NCBI GenBank assembly: GCA_021463645.1
Contig: JAJTYI010000009.1
Coordinates: 93,343-157,342 of the forward strand
Origin: a bacterium
Lineage (GTDB): Bacteria; Patescibacteriota; Dojkabacteria; B142; OLB20
Direction of reading: 5' to 3'
Length of the DNA: 64,000 nt
Part shown: one piece after another, positions 1 through 53,581 of the stretch
Position numbering within the stretch: position 1 is the stretch's first letter
Layout of the letters: the number at the start of each line of letters is the position of its first letter
Notes under the pieces: generated by a model
Database searches by the model: none
What the model was told of the DNA's origin: nothing
Seen by the model: the letters and a program-made list of their open reading frames with translations, nothing else
Program-made: the position numbers and the translations under genes

Positions 1-681
1 TTCTCTAAAACAAAAGAATCAAAGGTGAGGGGATATACACCAGGACGATTTAGCTTTAATGTTAGGGGTGGTAGATGCGAAACATGTAAGGGGGATGGAC
101 TGATTAAAATTGAAATGCAATTTCTTGCTGATGTCTATGTGGAATGTGAACAATGTCATGGGAAAAGATACAACAGAGAAACATTACAAATAGACTTCAA
201 AGGTAAAAATATTTCTGAAGTCTTGGATATGAGTGTGGAAGAAGCCTTGGAATTCTTCACCAATATCCCTGCAATCAAAAACAAATTGATTACCTTGCAA
301 AAAGTTGGACTGGATTATATTCGACTTGGTCAGAGTGCAACTACATTATCTGGAGGTGAGGCACAAAGGATCAAACTTGCGACGGAGTTAAGTAAACGTA
401 GCACAGGAAAAACATTCTACACATTGGATGAACCTACTACAGGGTTACATTTCGAAGATTTAAAAAAATTATTAATAGTCCTTCATTCATTAGTTTTGAA
501 AGGAAATACAGTATTAGTTGTAGAACACAATCTAGATCTGATCAAAACTGCTGATTGGATAATCGATTTGGGTCCTGAAGGAGGAAATGGGGGGGGGGAG
601 ATTATTGCTGAGGGCACTCCATTAGAAGTCAGTAAATTTGACAAAAGTTACACAGGACATTGGCTGGCTAAAATCCTATAA
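1..681 (+). CDS. uvrA: Excinuclease ABC subunit A, C-terminal part (5' end lies outside the window)
   Basis: Frame 1 is open from base 1. Contains the zinc-finger CETCKGDG...[13 protein letters not shown] signature LSGGEAQR and Walker [13 protein letters not shown] of the UvrA C-terminal ATPase module. Stop TAA at 679-681. Confidence 0.93.
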
Positions 682-915
682 AGCGCAACTAGTTTTTGGA
701 TAATACCTTTGTGCGAATCCAATACCTAGACCTCCCCAGTCTACAATACTCAGTTTTCCATCACTATTAATATCTCTACCACCACAAGGTCCATAATCCA
801 CATCCTTGTCTGTACAAGTATTTTTGCCTCTACCATATGCTTTAGCGAATTCAGCTAAATCAGTACTCGTGAAAACACCATCATCATTAATATCTGATTT
901 ACCACAAATATTTCC
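676..915 (-). repeat. Dockerin-like C-terminal cassette, copy 1 (~240 nt)
   Basis: Shares nucleotide runs with the other copies, e.g. gcgcaactagtttttggataata is identical at 683-705 and 7176-7198. Confidence 0.85.
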
Positions 916-1101
916 TTCAACAGGAGGTGTAGGAGTTCGCAATGGTGTCGGAGTATTTGAAACATCTGGTGGTGTGGGTGTTCTAGTAGGAGATGGTGTT
1001 ATAGACGTTCCTATTGTTGGAGTTATACTCGGAGTGGGTGTAGCAACATCTGTAGGTGTTCTATCATCAACTTGTGTTCCTTTAATTAAAATTGCATACA
1101 A
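676..1101 (-). CDS. Pro/Thr linker plus dockerin-like C-terminal module with no signal peptide; probably the detached 3' part of the beta-helix gene 1146..2672
   Basis: The ORF starts at TTG, and its frame is open upstream to 1170. It encodes ...ANIDLGAYNFNQ..., then a PT-rich linker, then the module [13 protein letters not shown]...[11 protein letters not shown]...KTSCAL shared with four downstream genes. Confidence 0.6.
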
Positions 1102-1145
1102 GTCAGGAAAATTCTTACCCTGATTAAAGTTATACGCACCAAGAT

Positions 1146-2672
1146 CTATATTTGCACTCGTTCGGCATTGTTATAAAAATCCAGATCTTGAAATCCCCTG
1201 GTACCTTCTATTTTCCTACCAGAACCAACTGCAGCTGGAAAAGAGTTTATATAAAAATCATTGGGCAGCATAGTTGCGGGATCTAGAATTTGATTAGTTC
1301 CTAGAATTGTCTTCGGAGCAAAATTGGCAACTTTTATTCCATTAGAACTGGAATTATTATTGGTAGAAGTAATATTATTTTCTAAAGTAACTCCTGAGTC
1401 TGAAACAGCTCCGCCAGAAAAACCTTGTCCGTTAACTATATGAATGAGGTTGTTAGCAATTATTATATTTTTTAAATTTCCCGTTCCTTTTGAAACTGTG
1501 ATACCTAGCGCACCGACTCCTCGAACATTGATTATAGTATTGTTTACTACTCGCACATCAATCAAATTGGCTGAGTATTGAGCAGATACAGTTATACCTT
1601 TCGAGCAACCTACAACTACATTATTAGAGACTATGCTACCATAGCCTTCACCCGCCTTAGAAGTAACACCCTCCTCATTTCTAACAACAATGGCAGAACC
1701 ATTACCCTCACTAGAAGGTAATCCACTTTCTTTTAACCAAGCCTCTTTTTCTCCAGTACAAAAAATAAAGTTCGAATCAATTGTAGAATTTATAGGTCCG
1801 TTGAGGTACAAAGCACCATGTGAATTTTCCCATACAAAATTATCTACCACGTCAAAATTTGCAGCACCCATATGAACGTCAAAGCCTTCACCATAGTTTC
1901 TGAAAACGAGAGAGTTTCTTAATGATCCACTTTTTAGTTCATTTATATGTGCACCACCCCCGCCCACAACTCCGTTTTCAGCTCTTCGTCTGATATTGTC
2001 ATAAAGGGCGATGTATTCAAAGTCATTTCTATAACCAGTATTATCTTGATCTGCTCCAGCTTGAAGCCCTGGAACCCAGTTGTGGTAAAGTCTGGCACCC
2101 TTTAACAAAATATTATTGTTGTTGTGTGAGACAAAACCCTTGCCTGATGATCCAGAGACATCGATACCTATGATGGTTACATAATTTGAATAGGAAATAC
2201 CAAATAATGCATCATTTACACATGAATGTTTACCAACTTGGTTTTTGCATGTCGGATCAGGCAGTTCATAGTTTTCACCACCTGTAAAATTTGGCAATCC
2301 ACCACCAGTGTAACCACCAATTTTAATGGGTGCATTGGCAGTACCATTTAGATCTCTAAGTTTTGTGACTTGTTTATAAAGTCCGCCTTTGATACAAATT
2401 GCATCTCCTGGCTTGGCCTTACCCGCGGCGACCCCTACAGTCTTTAAAGATTGTTCTTCCGATGCACCCGTATTTGAATCAGAGCCAGTTAATGACACAT
2501 ACATAGTGCATTCTTCTTTCGGGATTGAGAATATTTGGAATGTAGGATTAGCAACTGAGACAACGGCTTTATTATCAGTTGGACCCCATTCTCTATAAAC
2601 AAGAATACTTGTAACTACCAATAGAACTATCCCAGTAATAAATAATCCTGCCGATAATATTTCTTTTCTCAT
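1146..2672 (-). CDS. Membrane-anchored/secreted right-handed parallel beta-helix protein (DUF1565/pectate-lyase-like); apparently truncated by a frameshift
   Basis: N-terminal TM helix. Motif YVSLTGSDSNTG...KTVGVAAGKAKPGDAICIKGGLY typical of DUF1565 beta-helix proteins. Repeated NN(V/I)xxG/N turns (NNVVVGC, VNNTIIN, IANNLIH). It lacks the linker and C-terminal module that its paralogous neighbours have. Confidence 0.75.
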   Translation of the reverse strand: MRKEILSAGLFITGIVLLVVTSILVYREWGPTDNKAVVSVANPTFQIFSIPKEECTMYVSLTGSDSNTGASEEQSLKTVGVAAGKAKPGDAICIKGGLYKQVTKLRDLNGTANAPIKIGGYTGGGLPNFTGGENYELPDPTCKNQVGKHSCVNDALFGISYSNYVTIIGIDVSGSSGKGFVSHNNNNILLKGARLYHNWVPGLQAGADQDNTGYRNDFEYIALYDNIRRRAENGVVGGGGAHINELKSGSLRNSLVFRNYGEGFDVHMGAANFDVVDNFVWENSHGALYLNGPINSTIDSNFIFCTGEKEAWLKESGLPSSEGNGSAIVVRNEEGVTSKAGEGYGSIVSNNVVVGCSKGITVSAQYSANLIDVRVVNNTIINVRGVGALGITVSKGTGNLKNIIIANNLIHIVNGQGFSGGAVSDSGVTLENNITSTNNNSSSNGIKVANFAPKTILGTNQILDPATMLPNDFYINSFPAAVGSGRKIEGTRGFQDLDFYNNAERVQI

Positions 2673-2720
2673 TTTTTACTATTTCATTTTTTAATTACTC
2701 AATCTCTAAATTTCTTCTCT

Positions 2721-2960
2721 TTATAGAGCACAACTCGTCTTTGGATAATACCTCTGAGCAAAACCAACCCCTGCACCACCGAAGTCAGCAATATTAAGCT
2801 TACCATCTTTATTTACATCTCTTCCTCCACATTGACCGTAATCTACATCCTTATCTGCGCATGTATTCAATCCTCTTCCGTATGCACGAGCGAATTCTGC
2901 AAAATCTGCGATTGTAAATACACCATCATCATTTACATCCGATTTTCCACAATTATTTCC
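2721..2960 (-). repeat. Dockerin-like C-terminal cassette, copy 2
   Basis: Shares runs such as ctctgagcaaaaccaac and ttacatctcttcctccaca with copy 3. Confidence 0.85.
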
Positions 2961-5441
2961 ACTTATAGGTTGTGTTGGAGTAACACTTGGGAATTCTGAA
3001 GGATTTGATGTTCTAGTCGGAGTTGGAGTCAAAGATCCCTGAGGTGGCGTTGGAGTAAAAGTAATATCAACAGAGGTTGGTGTGACAGAATTTGTGACGG
3101 GAGGGGGTGGGGTAGTATCCATACTCCATATAGTGAAATCAACTTCTCCACGTTTAATAATTGAAACAGCCTGATCACTTCTAAATTTCGCAGTAATATT
3201 ACCATTAATTTCTTCTTCTATCATGTCTTTTACAGTTTGCGCACCAGTAGTTTTATTTGTCCATTTTATAAACTTGGAAACAGTGTTTAGTACTATAATA
3301 TTTTTGTTATCACGCAATGCCCATTCAACACTTCCTCCGGGGTTTAAAATGAATATATTTTCTGAATTTTTTACTAACAAGGAATTTCCATCCTCGGATT
3401 TGTGACTTCTTACTGAAACATTTTTTGCATTTCGAATCTCAGCCTGGAAACCCTCTCTTTTATCAATAGCATCTCCGTGACCATCTTCTGGATTAATACC
3501 ATAGAGAGTCAGAGGTTGAGTAGTACCGTTCACTAAGAACCCTCTAAATTTTTCATGATATTTAGAACAACCTCCACCTCCTGATGTAGTACCCCATACA
3601 CGTCCACCACCATTTCCCGTAAAATGATAATCATTTCTCTCGTTTCCGTATTGTAGGTCAGCTGTTCTGCACTTAGATGGTCCCATAGCTCCGAACGTGT
3701 CTGTATGTGCAAAATAGATTATGGAATTTTTCCCTGCTTCCCAATGTATTGCGTCAAAATAGTTATTTCCTTTGCTAGCATCGATAATTATTTCAATATT
3801 AGCCATAGCAGTTGTAGCATTTGCATCATTAACAGTGCGAAGTGCATCAACTCTTTTACCAGGTTTCCATAGTGGATGTACTCTTATCTTTGAAAAATTT
3901 GGAACCACTCCGATTAAATGAGTATCGCTGCCTAGTGTTATGGTGTTTTTAATTGGGTATACGCCACTAGGAACGAATACATACTTAATTGATTTATCAG
4001 CAAATAATTGATTTAACTTTTCAGAATAATCCGGAGCTGAGTCGGGAAGGGGATTGCTCAAAGGTGTTATTCCCCTGTCAACGACATTAACTACACCACT
4101 ACCAGGTGTTTTACTTCTAGAGAGAAGTACATCAGCACTGGGAACTCTACCGTCTTCAATTCCATGCCTCATTCTGATTTTATATGCGTCTGGAGCATTT
4201 ACACTTAGAGAGATTGAAGAGGTATCTTCAAAATAGTCGCTCTGTGTTGTTACTCCTTCGACTAATTTAACTCCAACATTTGGCATAGTATTTGCAAAGA
4301 TATTAACCCTAGCCCAACCTGCAGAGCTCCCTTTATGAGTTTTGTCTTCTGTTTGAATTATATTTTCTGCATTTTTTACAGATACATTTTGGATTGCAAT
4401 TTGCCTACCTTGTAAAGTACTTATGGCAGGTTTATTTGAATTATTCCTTATCTCTATTGTTCCATCCGAAAGCGTATAAGAACCCATATGATATGTTCCA
4501 CTATCATTATAGTTAACACCTTCGGCTTCACCAATGACTGGAGCAGAATCTTTAATAATTTCAAATCCATTTAGTGAGACCGCTGGTCCGCGATGACTTG
4601 TAAAAGCTAAAACTTGCTGATTTTTTAAGACAACATTTGTATAAGCACCCCAACCACCATAACTACCATAAACTCCATACTTGCCTCCGATTATTGTAAT
4701 ATCTTGATTGGTCGAATTAGTCCCGATTGATCCATAAATACCTGCAAATGAGTCAACAGATTCAATAACAATATTACTTAGCGCATTTCTTTGATTTCCT
4801 GTCATTCTGATACCAATTGCATCAGGATTATTCGCCTCCATTACAAATTTTAAATTTTGTATAGAGTTCCCGATTAGCATAGCTGTGTTACCGTTGGTTT
4901 TATTTACGTCAGCTAGCTGATCATTGTAAGGTGGGTCACATTGGGTTTTTCCTACGTCTGCTTTTTCCACGAAATCACAAGCCCACATATGAATCATCGC
5001 TTCCTTATCAGTTCCATTGTGTGTTCTATCGTTGTTGGCATTGTTGTCATTGATAGATCCTGATTTGAGTTTAATTGTAGGAAGCTCACTTGCGGAGGTA
5101 GATCCCATCAAATGGAAAGAGCCACCAACTTCACCAGCTCTATCTTTTAAAGCAACAAGAGTATCTGAGATTAGATAAGTGCCTGGGGGAAAATATGTTA
5201 CAGCATCTTTACGATAAGCATCATCAATAGCATTTTGAATCGCGATAGTGGAATCCTTAACACCTGTTTTATCTGCACCATAAGTTGTTACGTCAAATAA
5301 TCCTATATTTTTAAGTTCTACAGGAGTTACAGTAGCTGCACTTTGATCATCTGGAGCTAAATTTTGTTTAAAAACTATATAAACAACTACGAAAATTGTT
5401 ATGAGTAATAAAAACGATAGGATCGTAAAAATTTTTTTCAT
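2721..5441 (-). CDS. Anchored/secreted GH55-like (pectate_lyase_3, double beta-helix) protein with PT linker and dockerin-like C-terminal module
   Basis: N-terminal TM helix. Two copies of the pectate_lyase_3 entry motif (DVTTYGADKTGVKDSTIAIQNAIDDA... and VVNVVDRGITP...KYVFVPSGVYPIKNTITL). PT linker and C-terminal NNCGKSDVNDDG...GGRDVNKDGKL...KTSCAL. Confidence 0.75.
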   Translation of the reverse strand: MKKIFTILSFLLLITIFVVVYIVFKQNLAPDDQSAATVTPVELKNIGLFDVTTYGADKTGVKDSTIAIQNAIDDAYRKDAVTYFPPGTYLISDTLVALKDRAGEVGGSFHLMGSTSASELPTIKLKSGSINDNNANNDRTHNGTDKEAMIHMWACDFVEKADVGKTQCDPPYNDQLADVNKTNGNTAMLIGNSIQNLKFVMEANNPDAIGIRMTGNQRNALSNIVIESVDSFAGIYGSIGTNSTNQDITIIGGKYGVYGSYGGWGAYTNVVLKNQQVLAFTSHRGPAVSLNGFEIIKDSAPVIGEAEGVNYNDSGTYHMGSYTLSDGTIEIRNNSNKPAISTLQGRQIAIQNVSVKNAENIIQTEDKTHKGSSAGWARVNIFANTMPNVGVKLVEGVTTQSDYFEDTSSISLSVNAPDAYKIRMRHGIEDGRVPSADVLLSRSKTPGSGVVNVVDRGITPLSNPLPDSAPDYSEKLNQLFADKSIKYVFVPSGVYPIKNTITLGSDTHLIGVVPNFSKIRVHPLWKPGKRVDALRTVNDANATTAMANIEIIIDASKGNNYFDAIHWEAGKNSIIYFAHTDTFGAMGPSKCRTADLQYGNERNDYHFTGNGGGRVWGTTSGGGGCSKYHEKFRGFLVNGTTQPLTLYGINPEDGHGDAIDKREGFQAEIRNAKNVSVRSHKSEDGNSLLVKNSENIFILNPGGSVEWALRDNKNIIVLNTVSKFIKWTNKTTGAQTVKDMIEEEINGNITAKFRSDQAVSIIKRGEVDFTIWSMDTTPPPPVTNSVTPTSVDITFTPTPPQGSLTPTPTRTSNPSEFPSVTPTQPISGNNCGKSDVNDDGVFTIADFAEFARAYGRGLNTCADKDVDYGQCGGRDVNKDGKLNIADFGGAGVGFAQRYYPKTSCAL

Positions 5442-5487
5442 TACTATTATTGGAATTTAATAAAATGTAACTATACGATAACGAATT

Positions 5488-5730
5488 TTAATTTATTGCA
5501 CAACTTGTTTTAGGGAAGTATCTCTGAGCAAAACCAACTCCAGCCGCTCCAAAGTCTGCAATATTAAGTTTGCCATCCTTAGTTACATCTCTTCCTCCAC
5601 AAGGGCCGTAATCGACATCTTTGTCTGCACAAGTATTTGTTCCCCTTCCGTAAGCTCTAGCAAATTCAGCAAAGTCTGCAATTGTGAAAACACCATCGTC
5701 ATTTATATCAGCTTTTCCGCAAATATTTCC
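5488..5730 (-). repeat. Dockerin-like C-terminal cassette, copy 3
   Basis: Nucleotide and protein similarity to copies 1, 2, 4 and 5. Confidence 0.85.
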
Positions 5731-7152
5731 AGTTGGGTTAGATGGAGTAGGGGATGGTGTTAGGGATAAATCAATTGAAGGTGTGATCATAATACTCGGA
5801 GTAACTGGCGGTTGTGTAATATTCGTGCTCGGAGTTACTGTCGGAAGTATTGTATTAGAAGGTGTTACAGTTGTTGGTAGTGAAGGTGTACCAGATGTTT
5901 GACTATTACTAAATTCGGTAACACCTTTAGTTACAACTATTTCCTTGTATGAACCATTTACTTTTGTTTTAACTACTTCAAAATCCTTTGAATCAAGAAA
6001 ACCAAGAGTATATGAGTTATTTACCCCTGATAAAAAGCGTGTGTTTTTTGAACGTCCAAAACCGAAAACGGTCATGGTATCCATATCAACATAACCATCT
6101 ATGAATTGGTCATCCTGATGATGTGCTAGGAATAACGACCTATTTAAGGTACCATCTGAGACGTAAATCCATTCTTCTCCAGCTATATCTGTAGTCCACT
6201 CTTGCGAAGCGAAGATTGATGTTCCATCTGACTTAGTAAGTATATCTTTATCTAACTCAAGTGTTCCTCCGGGAGTACCTTCGTATAAAAACCAATAATT
6301 CTTAGTGGACGGTGCTTTTGATACCCTCATATTTGCATACTCTGGATATATATCCCAAATAACTTCCCATTCAGTTCCGACAAAACTTCTAAACGAAGTT
6401 CTTATTGGACCTGAATTCAATATTTCTGTCTGAACGGTGTCACGTCCTGGATGGAAATATCCTCCATCGTTTGGATGAACCATGTTAGGTACGCCGCGGA
6501 AATCCCCATTAGCTCCAGTGCTCTTATTCCAACTTATCCAGTCCTTGCTATCTTTATCAATTAATGTTGCAAAACCACCACCTGTTTTATGGTAATAGTA
6601 TTCCCCATTTGAAGTTTCAATTTTTATGCTCGCATATTCTTTATGAGTAACGTTATCTGTCGTTTTAACGAGTTGGGGAATATTGGCAGATGGGATAGAT
6701 TTGTTTTCGAAGTCAAAATAAAGTTGATAATTTCTTTTTATATTTTTTTGGGTCTCTCCTTGTAATATCCATATAAGTTCTCCTGTCGCATTTGTCAAAG
6801 GATTGAAATTACTAGTTTTTTCAAATTGGAAAGGGACTTCCGCATTAACTACTTCTCCAGCTGAATTGATTTCAACAATCCGGAAAGAATCGGTGTCCAC
6901 ACTCCCTGATTTACTTATTGAGTTAAGAGCAGTTGTAAGGTTAATTGTTACCGCGACTGGTTTATTCGTTCTCGTAAAGTTACCAGAATCGACTTCAAAT
7001 GCAACCCTATAACTCCAACCGTTGTTCCACCACTGTGTTGCTGCTTTGTTATCAATGGGGGCAAGGTTATCTTGAATGTAATATGTTACAAATCCTACTA
7101 CCGAGAGGAAGATCAATAGCATAAACAATAAGATTGGTAATGCTTGTTTCAT
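5488..7152 (-). CDS. Anchored/secreted protein of unknown function with PT linker and dockerin-like C-terminal module
   Basis: N-terminal TM helix. The W..GWSYR beta-sandwich-like start (WWNNGWSYRVAFEVD) resembles secreted carbohydrate-active proteins, but only weakly. PT/S linker and C-terminal GNICGKADINDDG...GGRDVTKDGKL...KTSCAIN. Confidence 0.7.
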   Translation of the reverse strand: MKQALPILLFMLLIFLSVVGFVTYYIQDNLAPIDNKAATQWWNNGWSYRVAFEVDSGNFTRTNKPVAVTINLTTALNSISKSGSVDTDSFRIVEINSAGEVVNAEVPFQFEKTSNFNPLTNATGELIWILQGETQKNIKRNYQLYFDFENKSIPSANIPQLVKTTDNVTHKEYASIKIETSNGEYYYHKTGGGFATLIDKDSKDWISWNKSTGANGDFRGVPNMVHPNDGGYFHPGRDTVQTEILNSGPIRTSFRSFVGTEWEVIWDIYPEYANMRVSKAPSTKNYWFLYEGTPGGTLELDKDILTKSDGTSIFASQEWTTDIAGEEWIYVSDGTLNRSLFLAHHQDDQFIDGYVDMDTMTVFGFGRSKNTRFLSGVNNSYTLGFLDSKDFEVVKTKVNGSYKEIVVTKGVTEFSNSQTSGTPSLPTTVTPSNTILPTVTPSTNITQPPVTPSIMITPSIDLSLTPSPTPSNPTGNICGKADINDDGVFTIADFAEFARAYGRGTNTCADKDVDYGPCGGRDVTKDGKLNIADFGAAGVGFAQRYFPKTSCAIN

Positions 7153-7168
7153 TTTCTATACAATTAAT

Positions 7169-7408
7169 TTATAGTGCGCAACTAGTTTTTGGATAATAAC
7201 GCTGAGCAAAACCAATTCCCTGGGCTCCGAAATCAGCTATATTTAATTTACCATCTCTTGTAACATCTCTTCCACCACAAGGACCATAGTCGACATCCTT
7301 ATCAGCACAAGTATTGGTTCCTCTACCATATGTTTTTGCAAATTCGGAGAAGTCAAATATTGTAAACTGACCATTATTATCTACATCCGCTTTGCCACAT
7401 ATATTACC
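7169..7408 (-). repeat. Dockerin-like C-terminal cassette, copy 4
   Basis: Nucleotide and protein similarity to the other copies. Confidence 0.85.
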
Positions 7409-9901
7409 TGTAATTATTGTAGGTGTTGCACTTGGTGATACAGTTCCACTTACCGGTGGATCTGATGGTGTTATTGTAGGAGTAGATACGATAGGGGTAG
7501 GAGTGTTTGTCGCTTGAGTTACAGGTGTATTACTAGGGTATGTCGAATCTGAGCCATTTACAAAAAGCCACGCTTTTCTATTAAACCAACCAATGGAAAT
7601 GATATCCAAATCACCATCATCATCAATATCTACGAGTTGAGTTCCCACATGGTGATCAATAATATTTTTTGATTGACTATCAACTATGTGTTCAGTCCAG
7701 TTATTTGATTGATCTGACTTTGTTTTGTCTTTATTCTCAAGAATAATAACTCGATTATTTGTTGCTCCTTTATGTTCTCCTAAAACGATATCAAAATCCC
7801 CGTCATTATCAATATCTCCTGAATCCATACTAAAACCCTCTCCACTTATAGAGTAAATAATTGTTCTAGTCCATGTCTGATTGGGATTATTTTCTAGACC
7901 ACCTGGGTTTTTGTAATAAATAATTTCATTACCATTCTCTAAAGAGACAACCGCATCTAGTAAATTCCCTCCTCTGAAATTCTTTAGCACAACCCGATCT
8001 GGAATCCCAGCAGTTAGTCCAGCTAAATTATTATCAACAACATGTTGAGTTAATGAATTTATAGCTCCGTTATTTCTTATCCACTTAGTACCTTGGAAAA
8101 TATCATCATCTCCATCTCCATCGATATCTCCTATAGCTAGTCCTTCGTTTTGACTTTTGATTCCAGTTGGTGTTGTCAATGACCAATTAGTTGATTCGCC
8201 TGATACTTTTAAAAATTGCATATCATGAGTAGCAGGTTTATGCCAAGAAAGAGCTAAATAATTATCAGAACCAATTTGAATCTCTTTAACTCCTTGTGGG
8301 AAATCACCTACAGTAGGGCTTTGAATATTATTCATTAAAGTGAAACTGTTGTTCTCTGATTTTGCCCAGACTAGATCTCTTGAGTTGTGTCTATTTGCAT
8401 CTGTACTTGAAGCAGAAGCACGACTACCGATTAGATCTAGCTTATTGTCACCCCCAAAATTGCCTGCATAGAAAAAGTTGTCAAACCCATTTGTGATTTC
8501 ATTTTTTGTCCAATTTCCAGTAAAAGTAGTTGGCTGTTTCCACCATGAATCCCCTGTGACTATATCTTTTTTTGAATCTCCATCCACATTAACTGCAGTA
8601 ACAGCAAGGATATTTCTATCTGTAACCTCACCAACCAATTTCCTTTCCCAGCTATCTAAACCTCCTCCTCCAACTACAGGCGTTGATGTAGGAGCCGATG
8701 CCCCACCTTCTTGTAATAACACTGCAATATTAGGTGTTTCGAAATTATATGGTTTTGCAAGAATATCAAAATCACCATCTCCATCTAAATCTGCCATTTT
8801 ACCTTCATGCACATCAAGACCACTTTTTACTACGGTAGTTGTCATATTTCCATTCCCATCCCCATACAATATCCTTACTTTAGATTCAGGATTGGCACCA
8901 GCAAGTCTCATCTCAGCTGAGAAAAGATCCATATTCCCATCTTTGTTCACATCCAATATCTGTAACGAATGACCATTTTTTACATCGAAGAGTTTTGTCT
9001 TGACCCATGTCGAGCCATTCCATTGATATTTATCAGCTGTTCCCGTAGTATCTCCAGCACTGAAAACGACTTCAGGTCTCTCCCCCTTTTTTAATTGACC
9101 AACAGCAACTCTCGTAAAATCACGTGTTTCGTCAATTATATTTTTCTGATAGTTTGTTCCACTTGTATGCTTGAACCATAGACCAGCTCCTACAATATCT
9201 AACTTTCCATCTAAATCAATATCAGCAATAGCAAGACCTTCATGCTTATCTGTACTATTAAAAATCTTGGTTATTGTCCATTCTGTAGATGATTTCGGAT
9301 CCGAAGGTATTTCAGCAACAAATAAACCCGGTGCCGTACCTTTTTGATTCCAAAATACTAATTCAGTTTTTCCGTCACCATCTACATCCCCAAATGCCTG
9401 ATCATGGTGTTTGTTCGAACCAGTTGTTTTAATCGTATATCTATTCCACTTTGTATTTTCCGCATAATTTGGATATGGATTTTCCCACCAATAGATTTTA
9501 TTACTAGAGTTATCACCTGCAAAAGACACATCTAAATCTCCATCATTATCGATATCAAAGAAATCTCCTCCTGCCTCTATTGGCAAATTCTCAGAATCTA
9601 TAACAAATTGTTGCCAACCACTTTGTGTTCTTTGATACCAAACTACCGAATTTGCGGCATCTCTAGAAGCTATCACAAAATCATTTATACCATCTTTATT
9701 AATATCTAATATCAAGCTTGCAGTTTGTTGTTGTGATCCTTTTGGAACAGGCAATTGCCCCGCTTTACTTGATAACATAGTCCAACTTACTTCTGCTTTG
9801 TTGTCTTGAGGGCTAAGGTCTCTTGAGTAATAAAAGATGCTAAAACCGAAGAGAATTAATAATATGATTACTAAAATTATTAATTTGACTTGTTTTTTCA
9901 T
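7169..9901 (-). CDS. Anchored/secreted FG-GAP/VCBS-repeat (beta-propeller) protein with PT linker and dockerin-like C-terminal module
   Basis: Many Ca-binding FG-GAP-type loops (DINKDGINDF, DIDNDGDLDV, DVDGDGKTELVF, DIDLDGKLDIV, DLDGDGDFDIL, DIDGDGDDDIF, DIDDDGDLDII). I prefer the ATG at 9901 (MKKQVKLIILV...) over the TTG at 9922 used by the ORF track. C-terminal GNICGKADVDNNG...GGRDVTRDGKL...KTSCAL. Confidence 0.8.
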   Translation of the reverse strand: MKKQVKLIILVIILLILFGFSIFYYSRDLSPQDNKAEVSWTMLSSKAGQLPVPKGSQQQTASLILDINKDGINDFVIASRDAANSVVWYQRTQSGWQQFVIDSENLPIEAGGDFFDIDNDGDLDVSFAGDNSSNKIYWWENPYPNYAENTKWNRYTIKTTGSNKHHDQAFGDVDGDGKTELVFWNQKGTAPGLFVAEIPSDPKSSTEWTITKIFNSTDKHEGLAIADIDLDGKLDIVGAGLWFKHTSGTNYQKNIIDETRDFTRVAVGQLKKGERPEVVFSAGDTTGTADKYQWNGSTWVKTKLFDVKNGHSLQILDVNKDGNMDLFSAEMRLAGANPESKVRILYGDGNGNMTTTVVKSGLDVHEGKMADLDGDGDFDILAKPYNFETPNIAVLLQEGGASAPTSTPVVGGGGLDSWERKLVGEVTDRNILAVTAVNVDGDSKKDIVTGDSWWKQPTTFTGNWTKNEITNGFDNFFYAGNFGGDNKLDLIGSRASASSTDANRHNSRDLVWAKSENNSFTLMNNIQSPTVGDFPQGVKEIQIGSDNYLALSWHKPATHDMQFLKVSGESTNWSLTTPTGIKSQNEGLAIGDIDGDGDDDIFQGTKWIRNNGAINSLTQHVVDNNLAGLTAGIPDRVVLKNFRGGNLLDAVVSLENGNEIIYYKNPGGLENNPNQTWTRTIIYSISGEGFSMDSGDIDNDGDFDIVLGEHKGATNNRVIILENKDKTKSDQSNNWTEHIVDSQSKNIIDHHVGTQLVDIDDDGDLDIISIGWFNRKAWLFVNGSDSTYPSNTPVTQATNTPTPIVSTPTITPSDPPVSGTVSPSATPTIITGNICGKADVDNNGQFTIFDFSEFAKTYGRGTNTCADKDVDYGPCGGRDVTRDGKLNIADFGAQGIGFAQRYYPKTSCAL

Positions 9902-9930
9902 AAGGCAATAATTATCAAACAAAAATTAAT

Positions 9931-10170
9931 CTACAAACTACAGCTTTCTCGGGGATAATATCTTTGAGCAAATCCTATATTGAGAGCACCGAAGTCGACA
10001 ATGTTTAGTTTGCCATCTTTATTGACATCTCGTCCACCACATACTCCATAATCAACAAGCATATCATCACAAAATAGAGTACCGCGACCATAAATTTGGG
10101 CGAATTCTGCGAAGTCTGCAATAGTGAATACACCATCATCATTTACGTCTGCTTTTCCACATGCAACTCC
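9931..10170 (-). repeat. Dockerin-like C-terminal cassette, copy 5 (most divergent)
   Basis: Protein-level conservation of all four Cys and both DxNxDG loops. Confidence 0.8.
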
Positions 10171-11817
10171 AGTTCCTATAGAAGGAACAGGTGTAGATGT
10201 CTGTGTTACTGGTACACCCGTAATAGTTGGGGTAGGTGAAAAAATTGGTGTGACCGTAGCAGTAGGGGATGGTCCTGCTGTTGGAGTGTTAATAATTTCG
10301 GTTGGTGTATTTGTAAAAGTAGGGGTGGGAGTTGCGCTTGGGCTTCCATTTGGTGTTGGAGTTGGACTAGACACAACACCTGGAGTAGGTGTGAAAGTCG
10401 GAGGAAATGTACCAGTCCTAATTATTAAAGCAGGTCCAGGCCACATAACTTCTGCAGCATGATCCTCGGTATCAGCCTTTATCCATACTTTCCCATCAGT
10501 TGCCCCATTTCCTGCCATAAGCGCTGTTTTTGGTACATTATAGTAACTCTGGTGAAAACCGTGATTAACTGCATTGAATTTAGTTGTATAATTGTTATAA
10601 CCCCAATCATATTCTTTTCCGTTCCACGTTCTCCAAAACATTGCAGAATCTGTTATTGAAGTAATATCAAAACCAGCAGGTATTCGCACCCTCACTACGT
10701 CAACAATATTGTTCTTACGAGAGCCAAATCTGGGTGGAACATTTTGAGCATGAAATATCTTTACAGAAGCACCAATCCTATTCAAGGACAAATTGGTTTT
10801 AGGTTGAGTGATATATGTAAGTCCATTAGAACTTTTTATCCTTGCAAATACTTTTATTACACCAGATGCCTGGTCAGGTACATACCTAGTATCCCAATTT
10901 AATGCAAAATCTCCAGGTCCATTTGATGTACCAATGTGATTTGAAATCTCGAAACTTTTTCCTGTTTGAATTTGTTTTGGAGAAAAATAACCTTCATGCC
11001 AATCACTTGTATAACCATCGCCATCCTCATCAACACCTTCATAGTAACCAATATAATCAACCTTTGTTGGACTTATAGAAGTCCCAGATTCAAAACTAAC
11101 CTTTACTTCTGGGTTTTCTCCAAAGCTAGATGGTATGACGACTGAACCCTTTGCTACTTCTCTAGTATTATCTTTGTAATAAATTCTAACTAATACGGAT
11201 GTCCAGCCCCATTGTCCCCAACCTGATGGTGAAGTATGTCCAGTAGTTCCTTCTATAGTGTTTGAGCCTGTGGTAAGGTCTGATTTGTTGATCACTATGC
11301 GTGGATTATCATGATGATAGTAATCATGTGTTTCAGTACTTGGGAGAGTAGGGACATCAGGGATGTTATACCAAGAATTTCCATTTATCCTGAACTTTTC
11401 ATCTTTCGTACCCTTATGTCCACCCCATCTATCGATTATTACCTCAATTTTCTCCACGTCATCATTTAAATCTTCTTGACTTATAGTAAAGGGTTCTTGA
11501 TCGTATATTAAAGAACTAAAAGGGAGGATAGGGTTAGGTAGAAATGCCTTTGCTTCTTCTCTTCCTGCATTTGGATTAGTGACTCTCCAAGGTTTATTTG
11601 CATCAGGCCATTTTAGTTTAATCTCTTTGTACACTGCTCCGAAAGGAGGGTCTTGAGAGGCTGGTGCAACAACCGCAGCAGAAACATCTTCTGGTTCTGA
11701 TGACTCAGGTACTCGCATATAAGTAAAAAGCAGTAAGGAGGAAAGTGATAACAAAAGCACGCCTCCATAAAGCATGGATTTTGCCACTAAGAGTTCATTT
11801 ATATTTTTCATATTCAT
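9931..11817 (-). CDS. Anchored/secreted protein of unknown function with PT linker and dockerin-like C-terminal module
   Basis: N-terminal hydrophobic anchor, ~420-aa unassigned ectodomain, long PT linker, and C-terminal VACGKADVNDDG...GGRDVNKDGKL...RESCSL. Confidence 0.7.
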   Translation of the reverse strand: MNMKNINELLVAKSMLYGGVLLLSLSSLLLFTYMRVPESSEPEDVSAAVVAPASQDPPFGAVYKEIKLKWPDANKPWRVTNPNAGREEAKAFLPNPILPFSSLIYDQEPFTISQEDLNDDVEKIEVIIDRWGGHKGTKDEKFRINGNSWYNIPDVPTLPSTETHDYYHHDNPRIVINKSDLTTGSNTIEGTTGHTSPSGWGQWGWTSVLVRIYYKDNTREVAKGSVVIPSSFGENPEVKVSFESGTSISPTKVDYIGYYEGVDEDGDGYTSDWHEGYFSPKQIQTGKSFEISNHIGTSNGPGDFALNWDTRYVPDQASGVIKVFARIKSSNGLTYITQPKTNLSLNRIGASVKIFHAQNVPPRFGSRKNNIVDVVRVRIPAGFDITSITDSAMFWRTWNGKEYDWGYNNYTTKFNAVNHGFHQSYYNVPKTALMAGNGATDGKVWIKADTEDHAAEVMWPGPALIIRTGTFPPTFTPTPGVVSSPTPTPNGSPSATPTPTFTNTPTEIINTPTAGPSPTATVTPIFSPTPTITGVPVTQTSTPVPSIGTGVACGKADVNDDGVFTIADFAEFAQIYGRGTLFCDDMLVDYGVCGGRDVNKDGKLNIVDFGALNIGFAQRYYPRESCSL

Positions 11818-28883: not shown

Positions 28884-30143
28884 TTAATTGAATTCGTTCC
28901 TATCTGCTATAGTGACTTTGATTGTCTCACTTTCTCCATCACGTATTACAACAATATCGACTTCCTCTCCAATTTTCGACCTCTGTATCAGATTTAATAG
29001 TGATTCGTCCTCTAAATCTTTGCCAGCAAATTGCACTATAACATCACCTTCAACAATTCCAGCAGTTGCTGCAGGACTATTTTCTACTACATTCATCACA
29101 ATTGCACCAACTACTCCTTCGTTTTTGTAGAACACTAATCTTCTTTGATATTCAACCCCGAGGAAAGGTAATCTAAAATCACCAAATTCGTTCAACTCTT
29201 GAATTCTTTGTTTTACAAGATTGATAGGAAGTGCGAAAGAAAGGTTATCAGCTCCACTAATTGTCGCAAAATTAACTCCAACAACTTCACCATTGGAGTT
29301 GAGTAGAGGACCTCCTGAATTACCTGGATTGATTGCAGCATCGGTTTGTATTACATCAAAATGAGTACGAGATGAAAATCTGTAGTAATCATCAGATAAT
29401 TCAACTTCTCTATTTAGCGCGCTAATTGAGCCTACAGTAACTGTATTTGATAACGAACCAAGAGGATTTCCAATTGCTATTGCAGTCTGACCAACTTTTA
29501 TATTTGTAGAATCACCTAATGGGAGGACCTTTAAATCCGTTTTGGGTAATTTTAATAATGCAATATCATTTACTTCATCTCTATAAATCTTCTCGACTTG
29601 TATTGGATCGCTTTCTTCTCCAACGACAACGAAGAAGTCTGTTGCATCACCACCGGAAACAACATGTTGATTAGTGACAACAAGACCATTGCTCGAAACT
29701 ACAAATCCGCTCCCAATAATCTGATCAGCAGCATTCGTCCCTCCTGCAATTCCAATCCCAACAACAGAGTCAGAGCTCTCAGCTACAACTTTGGTAACTA
29801 CGCTCTCTAAATCAGTAACCATTATATTTTGATCGTCCTTCTCCTCGTACGAATAGTCTTCGTTTCCATCTACAACTGAAGTTTTACCATCGCAAGAGAA
29901 TCTATCCCATAGTACTGATTCTTCTTGTACTGTAGAGCATAACCAAGTATTCATATAACCACCCAACCAGAGAAAACCGATTAAGGATGCAAGTATGCCA
30001 ATACTAAGGAAAAACAGAATGAGTTTGATTAAAAGTTTTTTAAAGCTGGATTTATGTTTTACTTCTACCGAAGGTGTTTCTTCACTTATCGAGGAATTAG
30101 TTTGAGTGACTTCATCTTGGAACTCTATATCTTTTTTATCCAT
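28884..30143 (-). CDS. htrA: HtrA/DegP-family serine protease with PDZ domain, N-terminal membrane anchor
   Basis: Catalytic triad context VVTNQHVV, NDIALLKL, GNSGGPLLNSNGEVVGVN. C-terminal PDZ (VVENSPAATAGIVEGDVIVQFAG). Confidence 0.9.
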   Translation of the reverse strand: MDKKDIEFQDEVTQTNSSISEETPSVEVKHKSSFKKLLIKLILFFLSIGILASLIGFLWLGGYMNTWLCSTVQEESVLWDRFSCDGKTSVVDGNEDYSYEEKDDQNIMVTDLESVVTKVVAESSDSVVGIGIAGGTNAADQIIGSGFVVSSNGLVVTNQHVVSGGDATDFFVVVGEESDPIQVEKIYRDEVNDIALLKLPKTDLKVLPLGDSTNIKVGQTAIAIGNPLGSLSNTVTVGSISALNREVELSDDYYRFSSRTHFDVIQTDAAINPGNSGGPLLNSNGEVVGVNFATISGADNLSFALPINLVKQRIQELNEFGDFRLPFLGVEYQRRLVFYKNEGVVGAIVMNVVENSPAATAGIVEGDVIVQFAGKDLEDESLLNLIQRSKIGEEVDIVVIRDGESETIKVTIADRNEFN

Positions 30144-34405: not shown

Positions 34406-35734
34406 ATGAGTCAATCGAATAATTATCAACCAAGAACACTTCAAGGTTTCAACGACTACTTTGCAAACGATGTCCGAATTAGAGAATATACCAAGAATCT
34501 ATTTCGGACATCTTTTCAAAAATATGGGTTTGAACCATTAGAAACGCCTGCCCTTGAGTTTAGTGAGCTTATGCTCGGTCAAAGTGGAGAAGAAGCGGAG
34601 AAACAATATTATCGCTTCAGAGACAACGGAGATAGAGATGTAATGCTCAAATTTGAAGTGATGATTTCGATGTGTCGTGCAATTGCTCAGTCTTATAACG
34701 AGATTGTTTTTCCTTACAAGAGATATCAAATCCAAAATGTATGGAGAGCCGAGAAAGTCCAAAAGGGAAGATACCGTGAGTTCACTCAAATGGATGCTGA
34801 TATTCTCGGAACAGAATCAATGTTAGCTGATGCAGAAATCATCCAGATGGGAATTGAAGTAATCAAAATGCTAGGTTTTGAAGATTTTTCGGCCCGTATT
34901 AGCAACAGAAAATTTTTAGAAGGATTAGCTCAGTATTACAAAATCGATAAATCTAAATACTACGGCTTTTTTATGACAATTGATAAACTCGAGAAAGTTG
35001 GAAAAGATGCGGTGATTGCGGAACTCGTGGAAAGAAGAGATATAGAAACTCAAATTGCAAATGACAGTATTAACACATTAGTAAAAGGTAGTGAAATCAA
35101 TGATTTTAAAGAAACAATTAGATTCTTTGAGAGTACATTAGGACAAACCGAAATTGGTGAAGAAGCACTAAGTGAGATATCTCAAATAATAGATTATCTT
35201 TTCTCAGTAGGCATTGATAGCAAATATTATAAATTTGATCCTACTATTGCTAGAGGATTAGCGTCATACACTGGACCGGTATGGGAATTCACTGTTTACG
35301 ATGGAGGGGTAGGCTCCATTGCAGGAGGAGGTAGGTACGATAAAGCTATCGAAAAATATATTGGTAAAAATATTCCTGCAACTGGAATTTCATTTGGTCT
35401 AGAACGTATTTCGGACATTATTAAGTCTAGAAATATGTATAATCCTCAAAATGACTTAAAAGTATTAGTGACTGTTTTTTCCGAAGATGTAAAAAGCAAA
35501 TCAATTGAAGTAGCGAATGAATTAAGAAACAAGGATATTCCAACAATGCTTTATCCAGAGATTGCGAAATTAGAAAAACAATTTAAATATGCTGACAGGA
35601 AAAACATTCCCTATGTGATAGTAATAGGTCCTGATGAATTATCCTCTAACACAGTTCAACTAAAAGACATGTTAAACAGAACTCAAAATCAGATGGATTT
35701 AGAAAATTTATACAAGACAGTAAGCTCTAACTAG
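34406..35734 (+). CDS. hisS: Histidine--tRNA ligase
   Basis: Class II motifs (RYREFTQMDADILG, GGGRYD, ATGISFGLERI) plus a C-terminal anticodon-binding domain, so HisS rather than HisZ. Confidence 0.88.
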   Translation: MSQSNNYQPRTLQGFNDYFANDVRIREYTKNLFRTSFQKYGFEPLETPALEFSELMLGQSGEEAEKQYYRFRDNGDRDVMLKFEVMISMCRAIAQSYNEIVFPYKRYQIQNVWRAEKVQKGRYREFTQMDADILGTESMLADAEIIQMGIEVIKMLGFEDFSARISNRKFLEGLAQYYKIDKSKYYGFFMTIDKLEKVGKDAVIAELVERRDIETQIANDSINTLVKGSEINDFKETIRFFESTLGQTEIGEEALSEISQIIDYLFSVGIDSKYYKFDPTIARGLASYTGPVWEFTVYDGGVGSIAGGGRYDKAIEKYIGKNIPATGISFGLERISDIIKSRNMYNPQNDLKVLVTVFSEDVKSKSIEVANELRNKDIPTMLYPEIAKLEKQFKYADRKNIPYVIVIGPDELSSNTVQLKDMLNRTQNQMDLENLYKTVSSN

Positions 35735-36599
35735 AATGTTCTTTAAGAAATATTCTAGGAATCCGTTTTTTGGGTAGATATGTTTTTAATGTATATGAAA
35801 GCAATTCTATAAACCCAGGATCTACCTTTTTCGAATATACAATAAACGGATCTTTCCGAATTACTCTTAGTTTCCATTTATCAAGTCTAGTAGCATACTG
35901 TATAGGTCTTCTGTATCTTCTTGGAATAAATTTATATCCTTTTTCACCAATACCAACCCATTCTTCGAATCTATCAAATTGTAAATTCATGAAGTTTTTA
36001 AAGTCTTCTGGCTGTTTGATTATGATTTCATAATCTAGACTTTCTAAATTGAATTTTCGCAAATCTGATTTTGGAAAATACTGCCTCCCTAATTGTAAAT
36101 CCTCGTTTATATCACGTATGAAGTTTATCCATTGTGCTGATCTACCTAGATATTTCGCTGTCTTATATGCATCTGCTGGTAAATCGAGTACTTTGCACAT
36201 AAATAATCCAATTACTTCTGCCACTCCATATGAATATTCTAAAGTATCCTCTAGTGTATTATAAGTTTTACCACTTTGGTCCATCAACATACTTTCAAAC
36301 AATGCTTCAACCCATTCATCCTTAATCCCTTTCTCCTTTTTAATTCGGACAAATTCCTGAATAAGCTTAACATCTGAATGCTTGGTTTCTAATATTTTAT
36401 AATATTCCGCACGTATTTCATCAAAACTTAACTCTGTTTTTTCAGGTTCGTCAATTGAGTCATCAACAAATCTACAAAAGTTGTAAACTGCAGTAACATC
36501 TTCACGAATTTGAGATGGGAATCCAATTGCACTAAAAAAATATCTTTTACTTCCTTTATAAAATCGAGTGAAAAATTGTATCTTTTCTATTATTTTCAT
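35727..36599 (-). CDS. crtB: Phytoene/dehydrosqualene synthase family protein
   Basis: Asp-rich motifs CRFVDDSIDE and RDINEDLQLGRQYFP of the squalene/phytoene synthase family. Confidence 0.85.
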   Translation of the reverse strand: MKIIEKIQFFTRFYKGSKRYFFSAIGFPSQIREDVTAVYNFCRFVDDSIDEPEKTELSFDEIRAEYYKILETKHSDVKLIQEFVRIKKEKGIKDEWVEALFESMLMDQSGKTYNTLEDTLEYSYGVAEVIGLFMCKVLDLPADAYKTAKYLGRSAQWINFIRDINEDLQLGRQYFPKSDLRKFNLESLDYEIIIKQPEDFKNFMNLQFDRFEEWVGIGEKGYKFIPRRYRRPIQYATRLDKWKLRVIRKDPFIVYSKKVDPGFIELLSYTLKTYLPKKRIPRIFLKEHSS

Positions 36600-38080
36600 T
36601 AAATTGGATGATCCTTCATAATTAATTTTTCAGTCGTTTCAGCTGTTAGTAATACTCCAGGTACTCCCGCTCCAGGATGTGTGCTGGCACCAACCAAGTA
36701 GAGATTTTCAACATCTTCACTTCTGTTATGAGGTCGGAAGTTGGCACTTTGGAATAATGTTGGTTGCACTCCCCAAGCACTTCCTAGGTAATTATTTCTT
36801 TCTGAAAGAAAATCCATCGGTGTGAATACTTCCAGAAAATCAATATTTTTCTGTAAATCTTTCATGCCAAAGTCATTCTCCAAAAAGTTGAGTACTCTTC
36901 TTGTAAACCTATCTTTCTCAACTTTCCAGTCAACATCAGCTTTGAGATTTGGAGTAGGAATCAAAACATACATTGATTCACAACCTTCAGGAGCCATTGA
37001 ACTATCGGTTTTAGTTGGAACATGTAGATACATCGAAAAATCATCCGCCAGTATTTTATTTTCAAAAATATCATCAATTAGTCCTTTGTATCTTTCGGAT
37101 AAAATCAAAGTATGATGCATCAATTCTGGATATTGTTTTTTTGTACCAATGTAGGCAAGATAACAACTCATAGAATATTTCATCTTATTTACATTATCTT
37201 TCTTCCATTTAGTGAGTTTATCTTGTTCAATTAAATCTTTGTACGTGTGAGCGAAGTGAGTATTTGAAACAACTAGGTCAAATTTTTCTTCACCATTTTT
37301 TGTTTTAACACCAACAGCTTTTCCATCCTCTATAATAATTCTATGGACTTCAGTTGAAGTCTTCACGATTCCTCCATGCTTTTTGAAAACTTTCTCTAGT
37401 GCCTCAATCAAAGAATACATTCCGCCTTCTGTAAACCAAACTCCTCCGACTTTCTCAAGATATGGAATCATCAGGTATAAAGAAGGAGAGTTAAAAGGAC
37501 TACCTCCAATAAACAATGGATGGAAAGAAAAGATGAATCTGCTCCTGAAATCCTTGAAGAAAAATTTGACGTTAGTATAGCAAGATAACATTGATTTTGT
37601 GCTGATTATTTTGGGCGCCGCCTTGAAAAAGTCCTTCATTGATAAAAATGGTTGTGAGCCCATCCTGTCCGAAATAACTATTTTGTATAATTTAGAAGAA
37701 TATTCCATAAACTTATCATATGCTTTCGCATCATCTTTATTGAATTTTGCTAATTGACTTTTCATCGCATCGCTATCACCGTTGTAATCTATGAATGTTT
37801 TATCGTGAAAATAGATTCGATAATATGGATCTAGTGGAATGTACTCTAGATATTTTTCTCTTTCTTCACCAGTCGATTTAAAAACATCATCGATTATTTC
37901 GGTAGCCGTAATTAAGGAAGGCCCCATATCAAAAGTATATCCATCTTTCTTAAGCTGGTAAGCGTGACCTCCCACTTTTTCTTGTTTCTCGTAGATTGTT
38001 ACTTTGTAGCCACGACCTTGTAATCGCACAGCTAAGGCTAATCCACCAAATCCCGAACCAATTATTGCTACTGTTTTCAT
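36599..38080 (-). CDS. crtI: Phytoene desaturase (CrtI family)
   Basis: N-terminal FAD fold VAIIGSGFGGLALAVRL...YEKQEKVGGHAY, and C-terminal LYLVGASTHPGAGVPGVL. Confidence 0.88.
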   Translation of the reverse strand: MKTVAIIGSGFGGLALAVRLQGRGYKVTIYEKQEKVGGHAYQLKKDGYTFDMGPSLITATEIIDDVFKSTGEEREKYLEYIPLDPYYRIYFHDKTFIDYNGDSDAMKSQLAKFNKDDAKAYDKFMEYSSKLYKIVISDRMGSQPFLSMKDFFKAAPKIISTKSMLSCYTNVKFFFKDFRSRFIFSFHPLFIGGSPFNSPSLYLMIPYLEKVGGVWFTEGGMYSLIEALEKVFKKHGGIVKTSTEVHRIIIEDGKAVGVKTKNGEEKFDLVVSNTHFAHTYKDLIEQDKLTKWKKDNVNKMKYSMSCYLAYIGTKKQYPELMHHTLILSERYKGLIDDIFENKILADDFSMYLHVPTKTDSSMAPEGCESMYVLIPTPNLKADVDWKVEKDRFTRRVLNFLENDFGMKDLQKNIDFLEVFTPMDFLSERNNYLGSAWGVQPTLFQSANFRPHNRSEDVENLYLVGASTHPGAGVPGVLLTAETTEKLIMKDHPI

Positions 38081-38084
38081 TTTA

Positions 38085-38810
38085 TTATTGAACTAGATTA
38101 TATTTTTTGAATAAAACAACAAATATTAAAATACTTATAATTACCGGGATATACATACCAAGCTTAATACTCAGAAAAGTCCAAAGTAGTAGATTTCCTA
38201 AGTAAATCATAATTAGATATTTGTTTTCTAGTGTTCGTTTTCCAAGAAAGAAAAATACAACTAATGAAGAGACAATGGCAGAAAAAATCCAACCCATAAA
38301 ATTTAAGAATGGCACATCGTAATACATTCCAGGTTTTTCCCAAATCCAGAATCCTAATCCAGTTGCAACAGGATCAAAAACTAAATCCAAAAGAAGAAGT
38401 AATATTACTGTGTAAATAATCTTATATATCCTATTTTTTGTGATGAATTCACTTAATGAGTATGCACTAATCACAAGAGACGGCCAAATTAAAAAAACTG
38501 TATATGGAACAATATCTGCTATCTTATAACCCATCAAGTCCGAATAACTAAATCGCGAGTATGGAAATCCAGTTTTAATACTAAGAGTTTCAATAAGTAA
38601 TCCGTAAATTCCTACTATCATGAAAACAGTTACCGCTGTTCTTAGGTTAGAAGATTTGTATAAGATGTAAAATCCTATACATCCTAATGCTAGTAAAATA
38701 ATTTGTAACATTAGCGGAAATAGGGCGAAGTCCTTGGTAAGATAAATCAAAGGAGCACTTATTACGTTTACAATTAAAACAGCCTTAATTTCATTTAGAG
38801 AAACTTTCAT
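38085..38810 (-). CDS. cruF: Polytopic membrane protein, putative carotenoid hydratase (CruF/Caroten_synth-like)
   Basis: ~7 TM helices and the size of the family. The position between a UbiA-type elongase gene and crtI mirrors crtD-lyeJ-cruF clusters. The assignment is mainly contextual. Confidence 0.5.
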   Translation of the reverse strand: MKVSLNEIKAVLIVNVISAPLIYLTKDFALFPLMLQIILLALGCIGFYILYKSSNLRTAVTVFMIVGIYGLLIETLSIKTGFPYSRFSYSDLMGYKIADIVPYTVFLIWPSLVISAYSLSEFITKNRIYKIIYTVILLLLLDLVFDPVATGLGFWIWEKPGMYYDVPFLNFMGWIFSAIVSSLVVFFFLGKRTLENKYLIMIYLGNLLLWTFLSIKLGMYIPVIISILIFVVLFKKYNLVQ

Positions 38811-53204: not shown

Positions 53205-53581
53205 TCAGTTGCTGTAATATCTGCTATTGTCTTTTGAGTATTATAACTAGATGACCGATATTGACTTTCAACGTTTATAACCCGATTATTACCGCTAGTT
53301 TTTGCAACTGTTGCAGAACATTCACGTTCTGCGTCTATCACAACGGAGAAACTTTCTGTCGTAGTATTTGCATAGGCTGGGTTATTTCTACTAATTTTAT
53401 AGTATGCTTCTTCCAAACATGTAAAAGCGGTATTCTGAGCATAGATTTGATTTGTATAGCTTGTCGTGGAATTTGCAAAGTCCAACGCTTGGAAAATTAA
53501 AACAATTGCAGTGAAGACAAATAATGCCGAAAATACCAAAACAGTGGTTAATGCAACGTTCCCTCTAAGGTTTTCCATCAA
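53189..53581 (-). CDS. PilX-N-like pilus assembly/minor pilin protein
   Basis: N-terminus LRGNVALTTVLVFSALFVFTAIVL resembles the PilX N-terminal domain (RGxxLxxxLxxL). 4-nt overlap with the upstream pilin gene. Confidence 0.5.
   Translation of the reverse strand: MMENLRGNVALTTVLVFSALFVFTAIVLIFQALDFANSTTSYTNQIYAQNTAFTCLEEAYYKISRNNPAYANTTTESFSVVIDAERECSATVAKTSGNNRVINVESQYRSSSYNTQKTIADITATEWVIN

Follow-up and report, generated by a model that had tools for sequence, protein, structure and literature searches.

What function does a short sequence serve that recurs behind the N-terminal hydrophobic helix of five neighbouring proteins with different central domains? The proteins are encoded by an array of five tandem genes (P1-P5) on the minus strand, at 676-11817, of a 64,000-nucleotide stretch of contig JAJTYI010000009.1. 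This stretch, called the window, has a guanine-plus-cytosine (GC) content of about 35%, and its closest relatives are metagenome-assembled genomes (MAGs) of Candidatus Dojkabacteria, a lineage of the Candidate Phyla Radiation (CPR)/Patescibacteria. Each array gene encodes an N-terminal hydrophobic helix, a passenger, a Pro/Thr-rich linker and a C-terminal module of 79-80 residues, hereafter called dockerin-like. Sequence comparison suggests that the motif, P-x-D-x-x-A, is probably the c-region of a Sec-type signal peptide cut after the Ala; the enzyme would most probably be type I signal peptidase (SPase I), perhaps with a more permissive S3 pocket in Dojkabacteria. The motif most likely represents a lineage-typical variant of an ordinary signal, also used by related candidate-phyla bacteria outside this protein family, and not a family-specific sorting tag.

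Translation of the array genes revealed P-x-D-x-x-A in all five proteins, 4-10 residues past a hydrophobic helix of 19-24 residues. An earlier note on this DNA had described a short shared motif at a constant position behind the helix and had taken it for a conserved functional element; both points were borne out. The positions it gave were partly accurate: the upper ends are exact for P2-P5, that of P1 lies 3 nucleotides (nt) inside the first (Trp) codon, and the lower ends coincide with the conserved Ala codon and so leave out the last codon of the nine-residue strings quoted. Among the 43 open reading frames (ORFs) of at least 150 amino acids (aa) in the window (19,352 residues), the pattern P.D..A matched exactly five times, always at these post-helix sites. 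Its composition-based probability in one 15-residue segment is about 0.002, a value to be read with the five genes as paralogues and hence not as independent trials. On this count and probability, a chance origin was rejected. Furthermore, the Pro, Asp and Ala codons vary synonymously among the genes (CCA/CCC/CCT, GAT/GAC and GCC/GCA/GCT); therefore, the motif is conserved or selected at the protein level, and a DNA-level repeat was excluded by the same differences. Apart from the motif, the leaders of the array proteins have diverged to 19-53% identity (alignment A3). The residue at -3 is Asn in P1, P3 and P4, Gln in P2 and Val in P5; that at +1 is Val, Ala, Ala, Glu and Ala in P1 to P5.

A scan with one genome per species detected the module in two Dojkabacteria MAGs (loci L001-L004). 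Every full-length family member encoded there carries the motif, in the forms WGPTDNKA, LSPQDNKA, LSPEDKSA, LAPIDNKA, LSPQDNEA, LSPEDQNA, LSPEDQSA, LSPQDNQA, RAPQDDSA and LAPEDNSA. The P1 orthologue in L001 has an identical motif, the P4 orthologues read LSPQDNKA in L002 and LSPEDKSA in L003, and the P2 paralogues in L003 read LSPEDQSA and LSPEDQNA. Protein P0007 is nearly identical to P5; the L002 orthologue of P5 reads TETEDVSA and is without Pro at -6. Three more motif copies were found on a related metagenome contig (L012). When the C-terminal module was used as a profile in an exhaustive search, 156 proteins were returned. P.[DE]..A stood right behind a transmembrane (TM)-like segment in 48 instances with many passenger types. 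When module relatives were restricted to those with E ≤ 1e-10 and an N-terminal helix, the strict motif was present in 17 of 31 and a relaxed form in 8 of 31. More widely, the consensus reads [A/S]-P-[E/D/x]-D-[S/T]-S-A, and Ser or Thr predominates at -3 outside this genome. The earlier note had staked its proposal on the motif recurring in further members, and it does so in all full-length ones of L001-L004 and L012 and in many distant relatives.

Direct searches for the leader were less productive. A protein search with a profile of 20 leaders recovered only a truncated P1 orthologue, the leaders being too short for database-wide E-values. A metagenome DNA scan for APEDSSA (TCN Ser codons) gave at least 81 chance matches, mostly on contigs of medium to high GC, with none behind a TM helix among the matches listed; it serves as a control only. 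Judged from titles and abstracts, literature searches brought up no paper that evidently deals with such a motif in CPR bacteria.

Three matches of the module search were trypsin-like (S1) proteases in which the motif runs straight into I-x-G-G. A search with the protease part of these three proteins yielded 33 more CPR-like homologues, 36 in all, and Ala directly precedes [I/L/V]xGG in all of them. P0092 (DSFA/ITGG, the slash marking the junction) was read by eye; the regular expression of the script had matched its TM helix. The scripted counts, which include this mis-anchored row, gave Ala at -1 in 35, Ser at -3 in 30, Asp at -4 in 26 and Pro at -6 in 25 of the 36 rows. In the Pfam Trypsin model, the residue that follows Ala occupies position 1 (in P0158, residues 44-230 correspond to model positions 3-206 and Ile42 to position 1); it also aligns with the IVGG of neutrophil elastase. 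Proteases of the chymotrypsin fold are active only if this N-terminus is free, so that it can form the activating salt bridge. This requirement points strongly to cleavage right after Ala. At the same junction, the signals of homologues in ordinary bacteria, including Streptomyces, end in the classical way (SAHA/IVGG, SAQA/IVGG and PASA/ITGG), and Asp at -4 occurred in 1 of 53 non-CPR controls. The dockerin-like module is present in 13 of the 36 S1 proteases; the other 23, among them P0173, which is labelled Dojkabacteria, have a C-terminal TM anchor and lack the module. The motif is thus not specific to module proteins. Of the earlier suggestion that it is a processing or sorting signal specific to the family, a processing (cleavage) site is very probable, and the family specificity had to be abandoned in view of these 23 module-less proteases.

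The boundary of the leader was also visible at the DNA level. Two adjacent genes in L003 (3078-4760 and 4720-6414) have leaders with about 80% nt identity up to ...GATAATAAAGCA (D-N-K-A), beyond which the sequences are unrelated. In L003, the leader of P3 (about 80% nt identity) was likewise found on an unrelated mature protein, the similarity stopping right after ...DNKA. The L003 pair shows leader shuffling, with its breakpoint at the predicted cut site. In evolution, the leader is a module of its own that ends at this site and has been reused on unrelated mature proteins.

The motif was compared with 168 experimentally verified Gram-positive signal peptides (PMC2638155, additional file 2). 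In this set, Pro has its maximum at P6 (17%), Ala occupies P1 in 84%, P2 favours Ser, Gln, Phe and Lys, and P1' is Ala in 36%, Asp in 11%, Ser in 10.7% and Glu in 9.5% (PMC2638155). The motif fits at P6 (Pro), P1 (Ala), P2 (Ser/Gln/Lys) and P1' (Ala/Asp/Glu). The leaders begin with MKK, MRKE, MKQ or MKKQVK followed by 19-24 hydrophobic residues, as in Sec n- and h-regions, with the latter longer than usual. A small residue, Ala, occupies -1 in all five window genes, all Dojkabacteria relatives and all 36 S1 proteases; a helix breaker at -4 to -6 is provided by Pro at -6 (five of five), and Pro is absent from +1. The residue at -3 is not a small or aliphatic uncharged one in four of the five window genes, whereas it is in the class as a whole. 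Alternative canonical sites lie one residue downstream in P2 and P5 (S-A-A) and five downstream in P1 (S-V-A). Nothing in the motif requires the dedicated enzyme implied by the earlier note, as Pro at -6, Ala at -1, Lys, Ser or Gln at -2 and Ala, Asp or Glu at +1 are all preferred by SPase I.

Several observations weigh against an ordinary signal cut by SPase I. At -3, P1-P4 and the Dojkabacteria relatives have Asn, Gln or Asp, which occur in 0-0.6% of the verified sites (Asn 0%, Gln 0.6%, Asp 0% at P3; PMC2638155), and the earlier note was right to call this residue atypical; Asp at -4, near-invariant here, accounts for 4% of them. Neither P3 nor P4 has another canonical site close by. The h-region of 19-24 and c-region of 10-13 residues compare with about 13-14 and 5-6 residues in the classical short V/A-x-A signals of the same genomes, whose coexistence marks the long leader as a distinct class. 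Evidence from proteins without the dockerin-like module comes from a single family, the S1 proteases. Box E of SPase I, searched for by regular expression only, had no match in the CPR DNA sampled (about 0.3 Mb), which is a weak negative. The two leader classes, the long c-region and the atypical -4 and -3 residues (Asp and Asn/Gln) also speak for a separate export or sorting class of surface enzymes, cut at the same Ala by a specialised peptidase, either a second SPase I paralogue whose S3 pocket is polar or a protease of another kind. In the same 0.3 Mb, only dockerin-bearing proteins and TM-anchored S1 proteases were seen to have the long leader, but the sampling was skewed to the neighbourhoods of just these genes. 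No peptidase gene, dedicated or other, flanks any of the arrays; the sole protease-like gene of the window is of the HtrA type (28884-30143). Most motif positions match SPase I preferences, -3 is Ser or Thr outside Dojkabacteria, and such a signal is not modelled in NCBIfam, where no match was obtained either. We therefore regard a specialised peptidase as rather unlikely. An extended version is unlikely as well: a second, dedicated CPR leader class (long helix, polar spacer, P-x-D-x-S/x-A) would mark enzymes for surface display and be served, in parallel to the A-x-A signals, by a peptidase with a polar S3 pocket, and copies of the leader located internally behind a TM hairpin in fused proteins would be programmed cleavage sites splitting a precursor into a membrane-anchored and a dockerin-tagged part.

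Alternatively, the helix might be a signal anchor that is never cleaved. The motif would in that case be a conserved stalk next to the membrane and could, for instance, serve to contact a partner. A hydrophobic stretch of 19-24 residues can span the membrane, and motif-less single-pass anchored proteins are encoded nearby, such as that of the HtrA-like gene. However, the S1 proteases would then be left without a free [I/L/V]xGG N-terminus, leader similarity ends exactly at the Ala, and an N-terminally fixed protein would presumably have little use for a second, C-terminal attachment module; we consider an anchor very unlikely. The near-identity of the C-terminal modules in tandem paralogues (75-89%) could point to a functionless relic of recent duplication or gene conversion, or to an element acting at the DNA or RNA level. 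Such an origin is hardly credible: the leaders have otherwise diverged, the codons differ synonymously, and the motif is kept in distant relatives and in a different protein family, a cross-family conservation that contradicts a relic.

Other signal types were rejected. The leaders and first mature residues contain no lipobox Cys of a lipoprotein signal (SPase II), no twin arginine of the twin-arginine translocation (Tat) pathway occurs in the n-regions (MKK, MRKE, MKQ and MNMKN), and the type IV prepilin signal (G/F or M-x-x-x-E ahead of the hydrophobic helix) is absent from the array proteins. The prepilin motif does occur in other window genes, for example at 58477-58920 (KGFTLIEIL) and 54081-55226 (KGFTLLEML). 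C-terminal sorting signals were dismissed on sequence grounds, and the NCBIfam models of the SipW-cognate, YSIRK and KxYKxGKxW classes gave no match at E ≤ 1 with the five array proteins.

If the motif is the end of a cleaved Sec-type signal peptide, an array protein would be made with a short basic n-region, a long h-region (19-24 residues) and a polar c-region (10-13 residues) carrying Pro at -6, Asp at -4 and Ala at -1. It would be threaded through the membrane with its N-terminus inside and its C-terminus outside; speculatively, Asp at -4 and other acidic residues may help to fix this topology. A membrane peptidase, most probably SPase I, would cut right after the conserved Ala, and the freed enzyme could be held at the cell surface via its dockerin-like module. 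In the related proteases without the module, the C-terminal TM helix would take over this role. A cleaved leader would explain why array proteins are both targeted to the membrane and equipped with a C-terminal module for attachment.

The coordinates of leaders, motif cores and modules are given in Table 1. The passengers differ by Pfam assignment, being beta-helix/NosD-like (P1), pectate-lyase-like (P2), unknown (P3), FG-GAP (P4) and unknown (P5). The C-terminal module has four conserved Cys and two EF-hand-like loops, with 75-89% identity between the array copies (alignment A1). Pfam Dockerin_1 scored at most 17 bits on the window modules (in P5 and the P1 module ORF) and up to 21.6 bits on relatives from other contigs, against a cut-off of 22.9, and NCBIfam dockerin_GC scored 11-16 against a cut-off of 29. 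The best sequence match in the PDB was the cellulosomal dockerin 2y3n_B (E = 5e-4). The module thus weakly resembles dockerins. In P1, passenger and module are separated by a 1-nt deletion, scored relative to an intact 666-aa orthologue (L001, 826-2826); the split gene may be either a pseudogene or a sequencing error.

Table 1. Coordinates of the features discussed. Positions refer to the window unless a locus is named; a slash marks a predicted cleavage site.
Feature	Position	Strand	Remarks
P1 leader, MRKEILSAGLFITGIVLLVVTSILVYREWGPTDNKA/V	2565-2672	-	n-region MRKE, h-region 22 residues, c-region REWGPTDNKA
P1 core, PTDNKA	2565-2582	-	predicted cut after Ala36
P1 passenger (beta-helix)	1146-2672	-	1-nt deletion at about 1160-1181 separates it from the ORF of linker and module (676-1101)
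P1 dockerin-like module	676-915	-	out of frame; alignment A1
P2 leader, ...YIVFKQNLAPDDQSA/A	5337-5441	-	MKK, h-region 21 residues, c-region KQNLAPDDQSA
P2 core, PDDQSA	5337-5354	-	predicted cut after Ala35
P2 dockerin-like module, 79 aa	2721-2960	-	four Cys, two EF-hand-like loops; preceded by Pro/Thr-rich linker
P3 leader, ...TYYIQDNLAPIDNKA/A	7042-7152	-	MKQ, h-region about 24 residues, c-region QDNLAPIDNKA
P3 core, PIDNKA	7042-7059	-	predicted cut after Ala37
P3 dockerin-like module	5488-5730	-	alignment A1
P4 leader, ...FYYSRDLSPQDNKA/E	9794-9901	-	MKKQVK, h-region 19 residues, c-region SRDLSPQDNKA; counted from ATG at 9901, the ORF list beginning at an upstream TTG (9922)
P4 core, PQDNKA	9794-9811	-	from translation
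P4 dockerin-like module	7169-7408	-	alignment A1
P5 leader, ...FTYMRVPESSEPEDVSA/A	11677-11817	-	longer n-region, h-region 21 residues, c-region RVPESSEPEDVSA
P5 core, PEDVSA	11677-11694	-	canonical V-S-A site
P5 dockerin-like module	9931-10170	-	alignment A1
Classical signal, ...GEVLA/Q	L012 19063-20283		
Classical signal, ...GEAEA/Q	L006 3434-4930		
Classical signal, ...SKLFA/V	L008 9384-10004		
Classical signals	L013		several genes

An internal helix followed by the motif was observed in the large enzymes P0009, P0017, P0026, P0035, P0040, P0046 and P0048, and also in P0054, P0062, P0066, P0084, P0096 and P0130. The order is enzyme, a stretch resembling VLG[V/A/I]S, TM1, a Lys-rich loop, TM2, SP.D.SA, a small domain, a Pro/Thr linker and the dockerin-like module. 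If the internal motif is cut too, one precursor would give rise to two surface proteins.

Genes directly adjoining dockerin-bearing genes in other genomes encode proteins with a classical A-x-A signal, a two-Cys domain of about 130 aa (A-domain; alignment A5) and a C-terminal TM helix (L008 9384-10004; L010 9351-9983; L013 2655-3365, 20554-21153 and 21113-21775). In P0063, P0071, P0073, P0075, P0076, P0079 and P0089, the A-domain is fused upstream of the part comprising TM helix, motif and dockerin-like module. Tested as a possible cohesin, the A-domain gave no Pfam or PDB sequence match, and it is absent from the window. It is the only candidate for a membrane-anchored partner of the dockerin-like module.

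The window contains further clusters on the minus strand. According to Pfam, a carotenoid-type cluster (35727-41150) comprises a squalene/phytoene synthase, two CrtI-like genes of the amine-oxidase family, Caroten_synth and a UbiA prenyltransferase; our impression is that such a cluster is unexpected in a small CPR-like genome. A type IV pilus-like cluster (43500-58920), recognised by eye in the translations, encodes PilB- and PilC-like proteins and several prepilin-type proteins (G/FTLxE); it adjoins genes for putative surface proteins of 2319 and 914 aa.

Most CPR/Patescibacteria have not been cultured, and a role in attachment to hosts is ascribed to their surface proteins. The motif may provide a simple sequence rule for finding exported, surface-displayed enzymes of these bacteria, whose helices standard predictors may call uncleaved anchors. 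It would predict exact mature N-termini, and it flags a possible shift in signal-peptidase specificity (Asn/Gln at -3, Asp at -4).

Compared with known systems, the array leaders resemble Gram-positive Sec/SPase I signals in their basic n-, hydrophobic h- and polar c-regions, in the place of the motif at the junction where homologous S1 proteases have A-x-A, and in their length of 35-47 residues, which is within the Gram-positive range (median 30, second peak 41; PMC2638155). They differ from these signals in the long h- and c-regions, in Asp at -4 and, in this genome, in Asn, Gln or Asp at -3. The array proteins are also built like cellulosomal enzymes: behind an apparently cleavable leader come an enzyme-like passenger that varies between the proteins, a Pro/Thr linker and, at the C-terminus, a module with two EF-hand-like loops. 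Unlike the cellulosomal ones, this module does not reach the dockerin cut-offs of Pfam and NCBIfam and contains four conserved Cys, and no cohesin was found for it.

Special signal classes, namely YSIRK-G/S, KxYKxGKxW and the SipW-cognate signals of the TasA type, place a leader motif on a subset of secreted or surface proteins beside ordinary signals. Likewise, a subset of proteins in the present lineage shares a leader motif superimposed on the general signal design, and ordinary signals coexist in the same genome. In those classes, the motifs lie in the n/h-region or differ in sequence; the SipW system in addition has a dedicated peptidase of a kind not found here. What sets the leaders of the array apart from ordinary signal peptides is that the c-region is kept as a recognisable motif across unrelated proteins.

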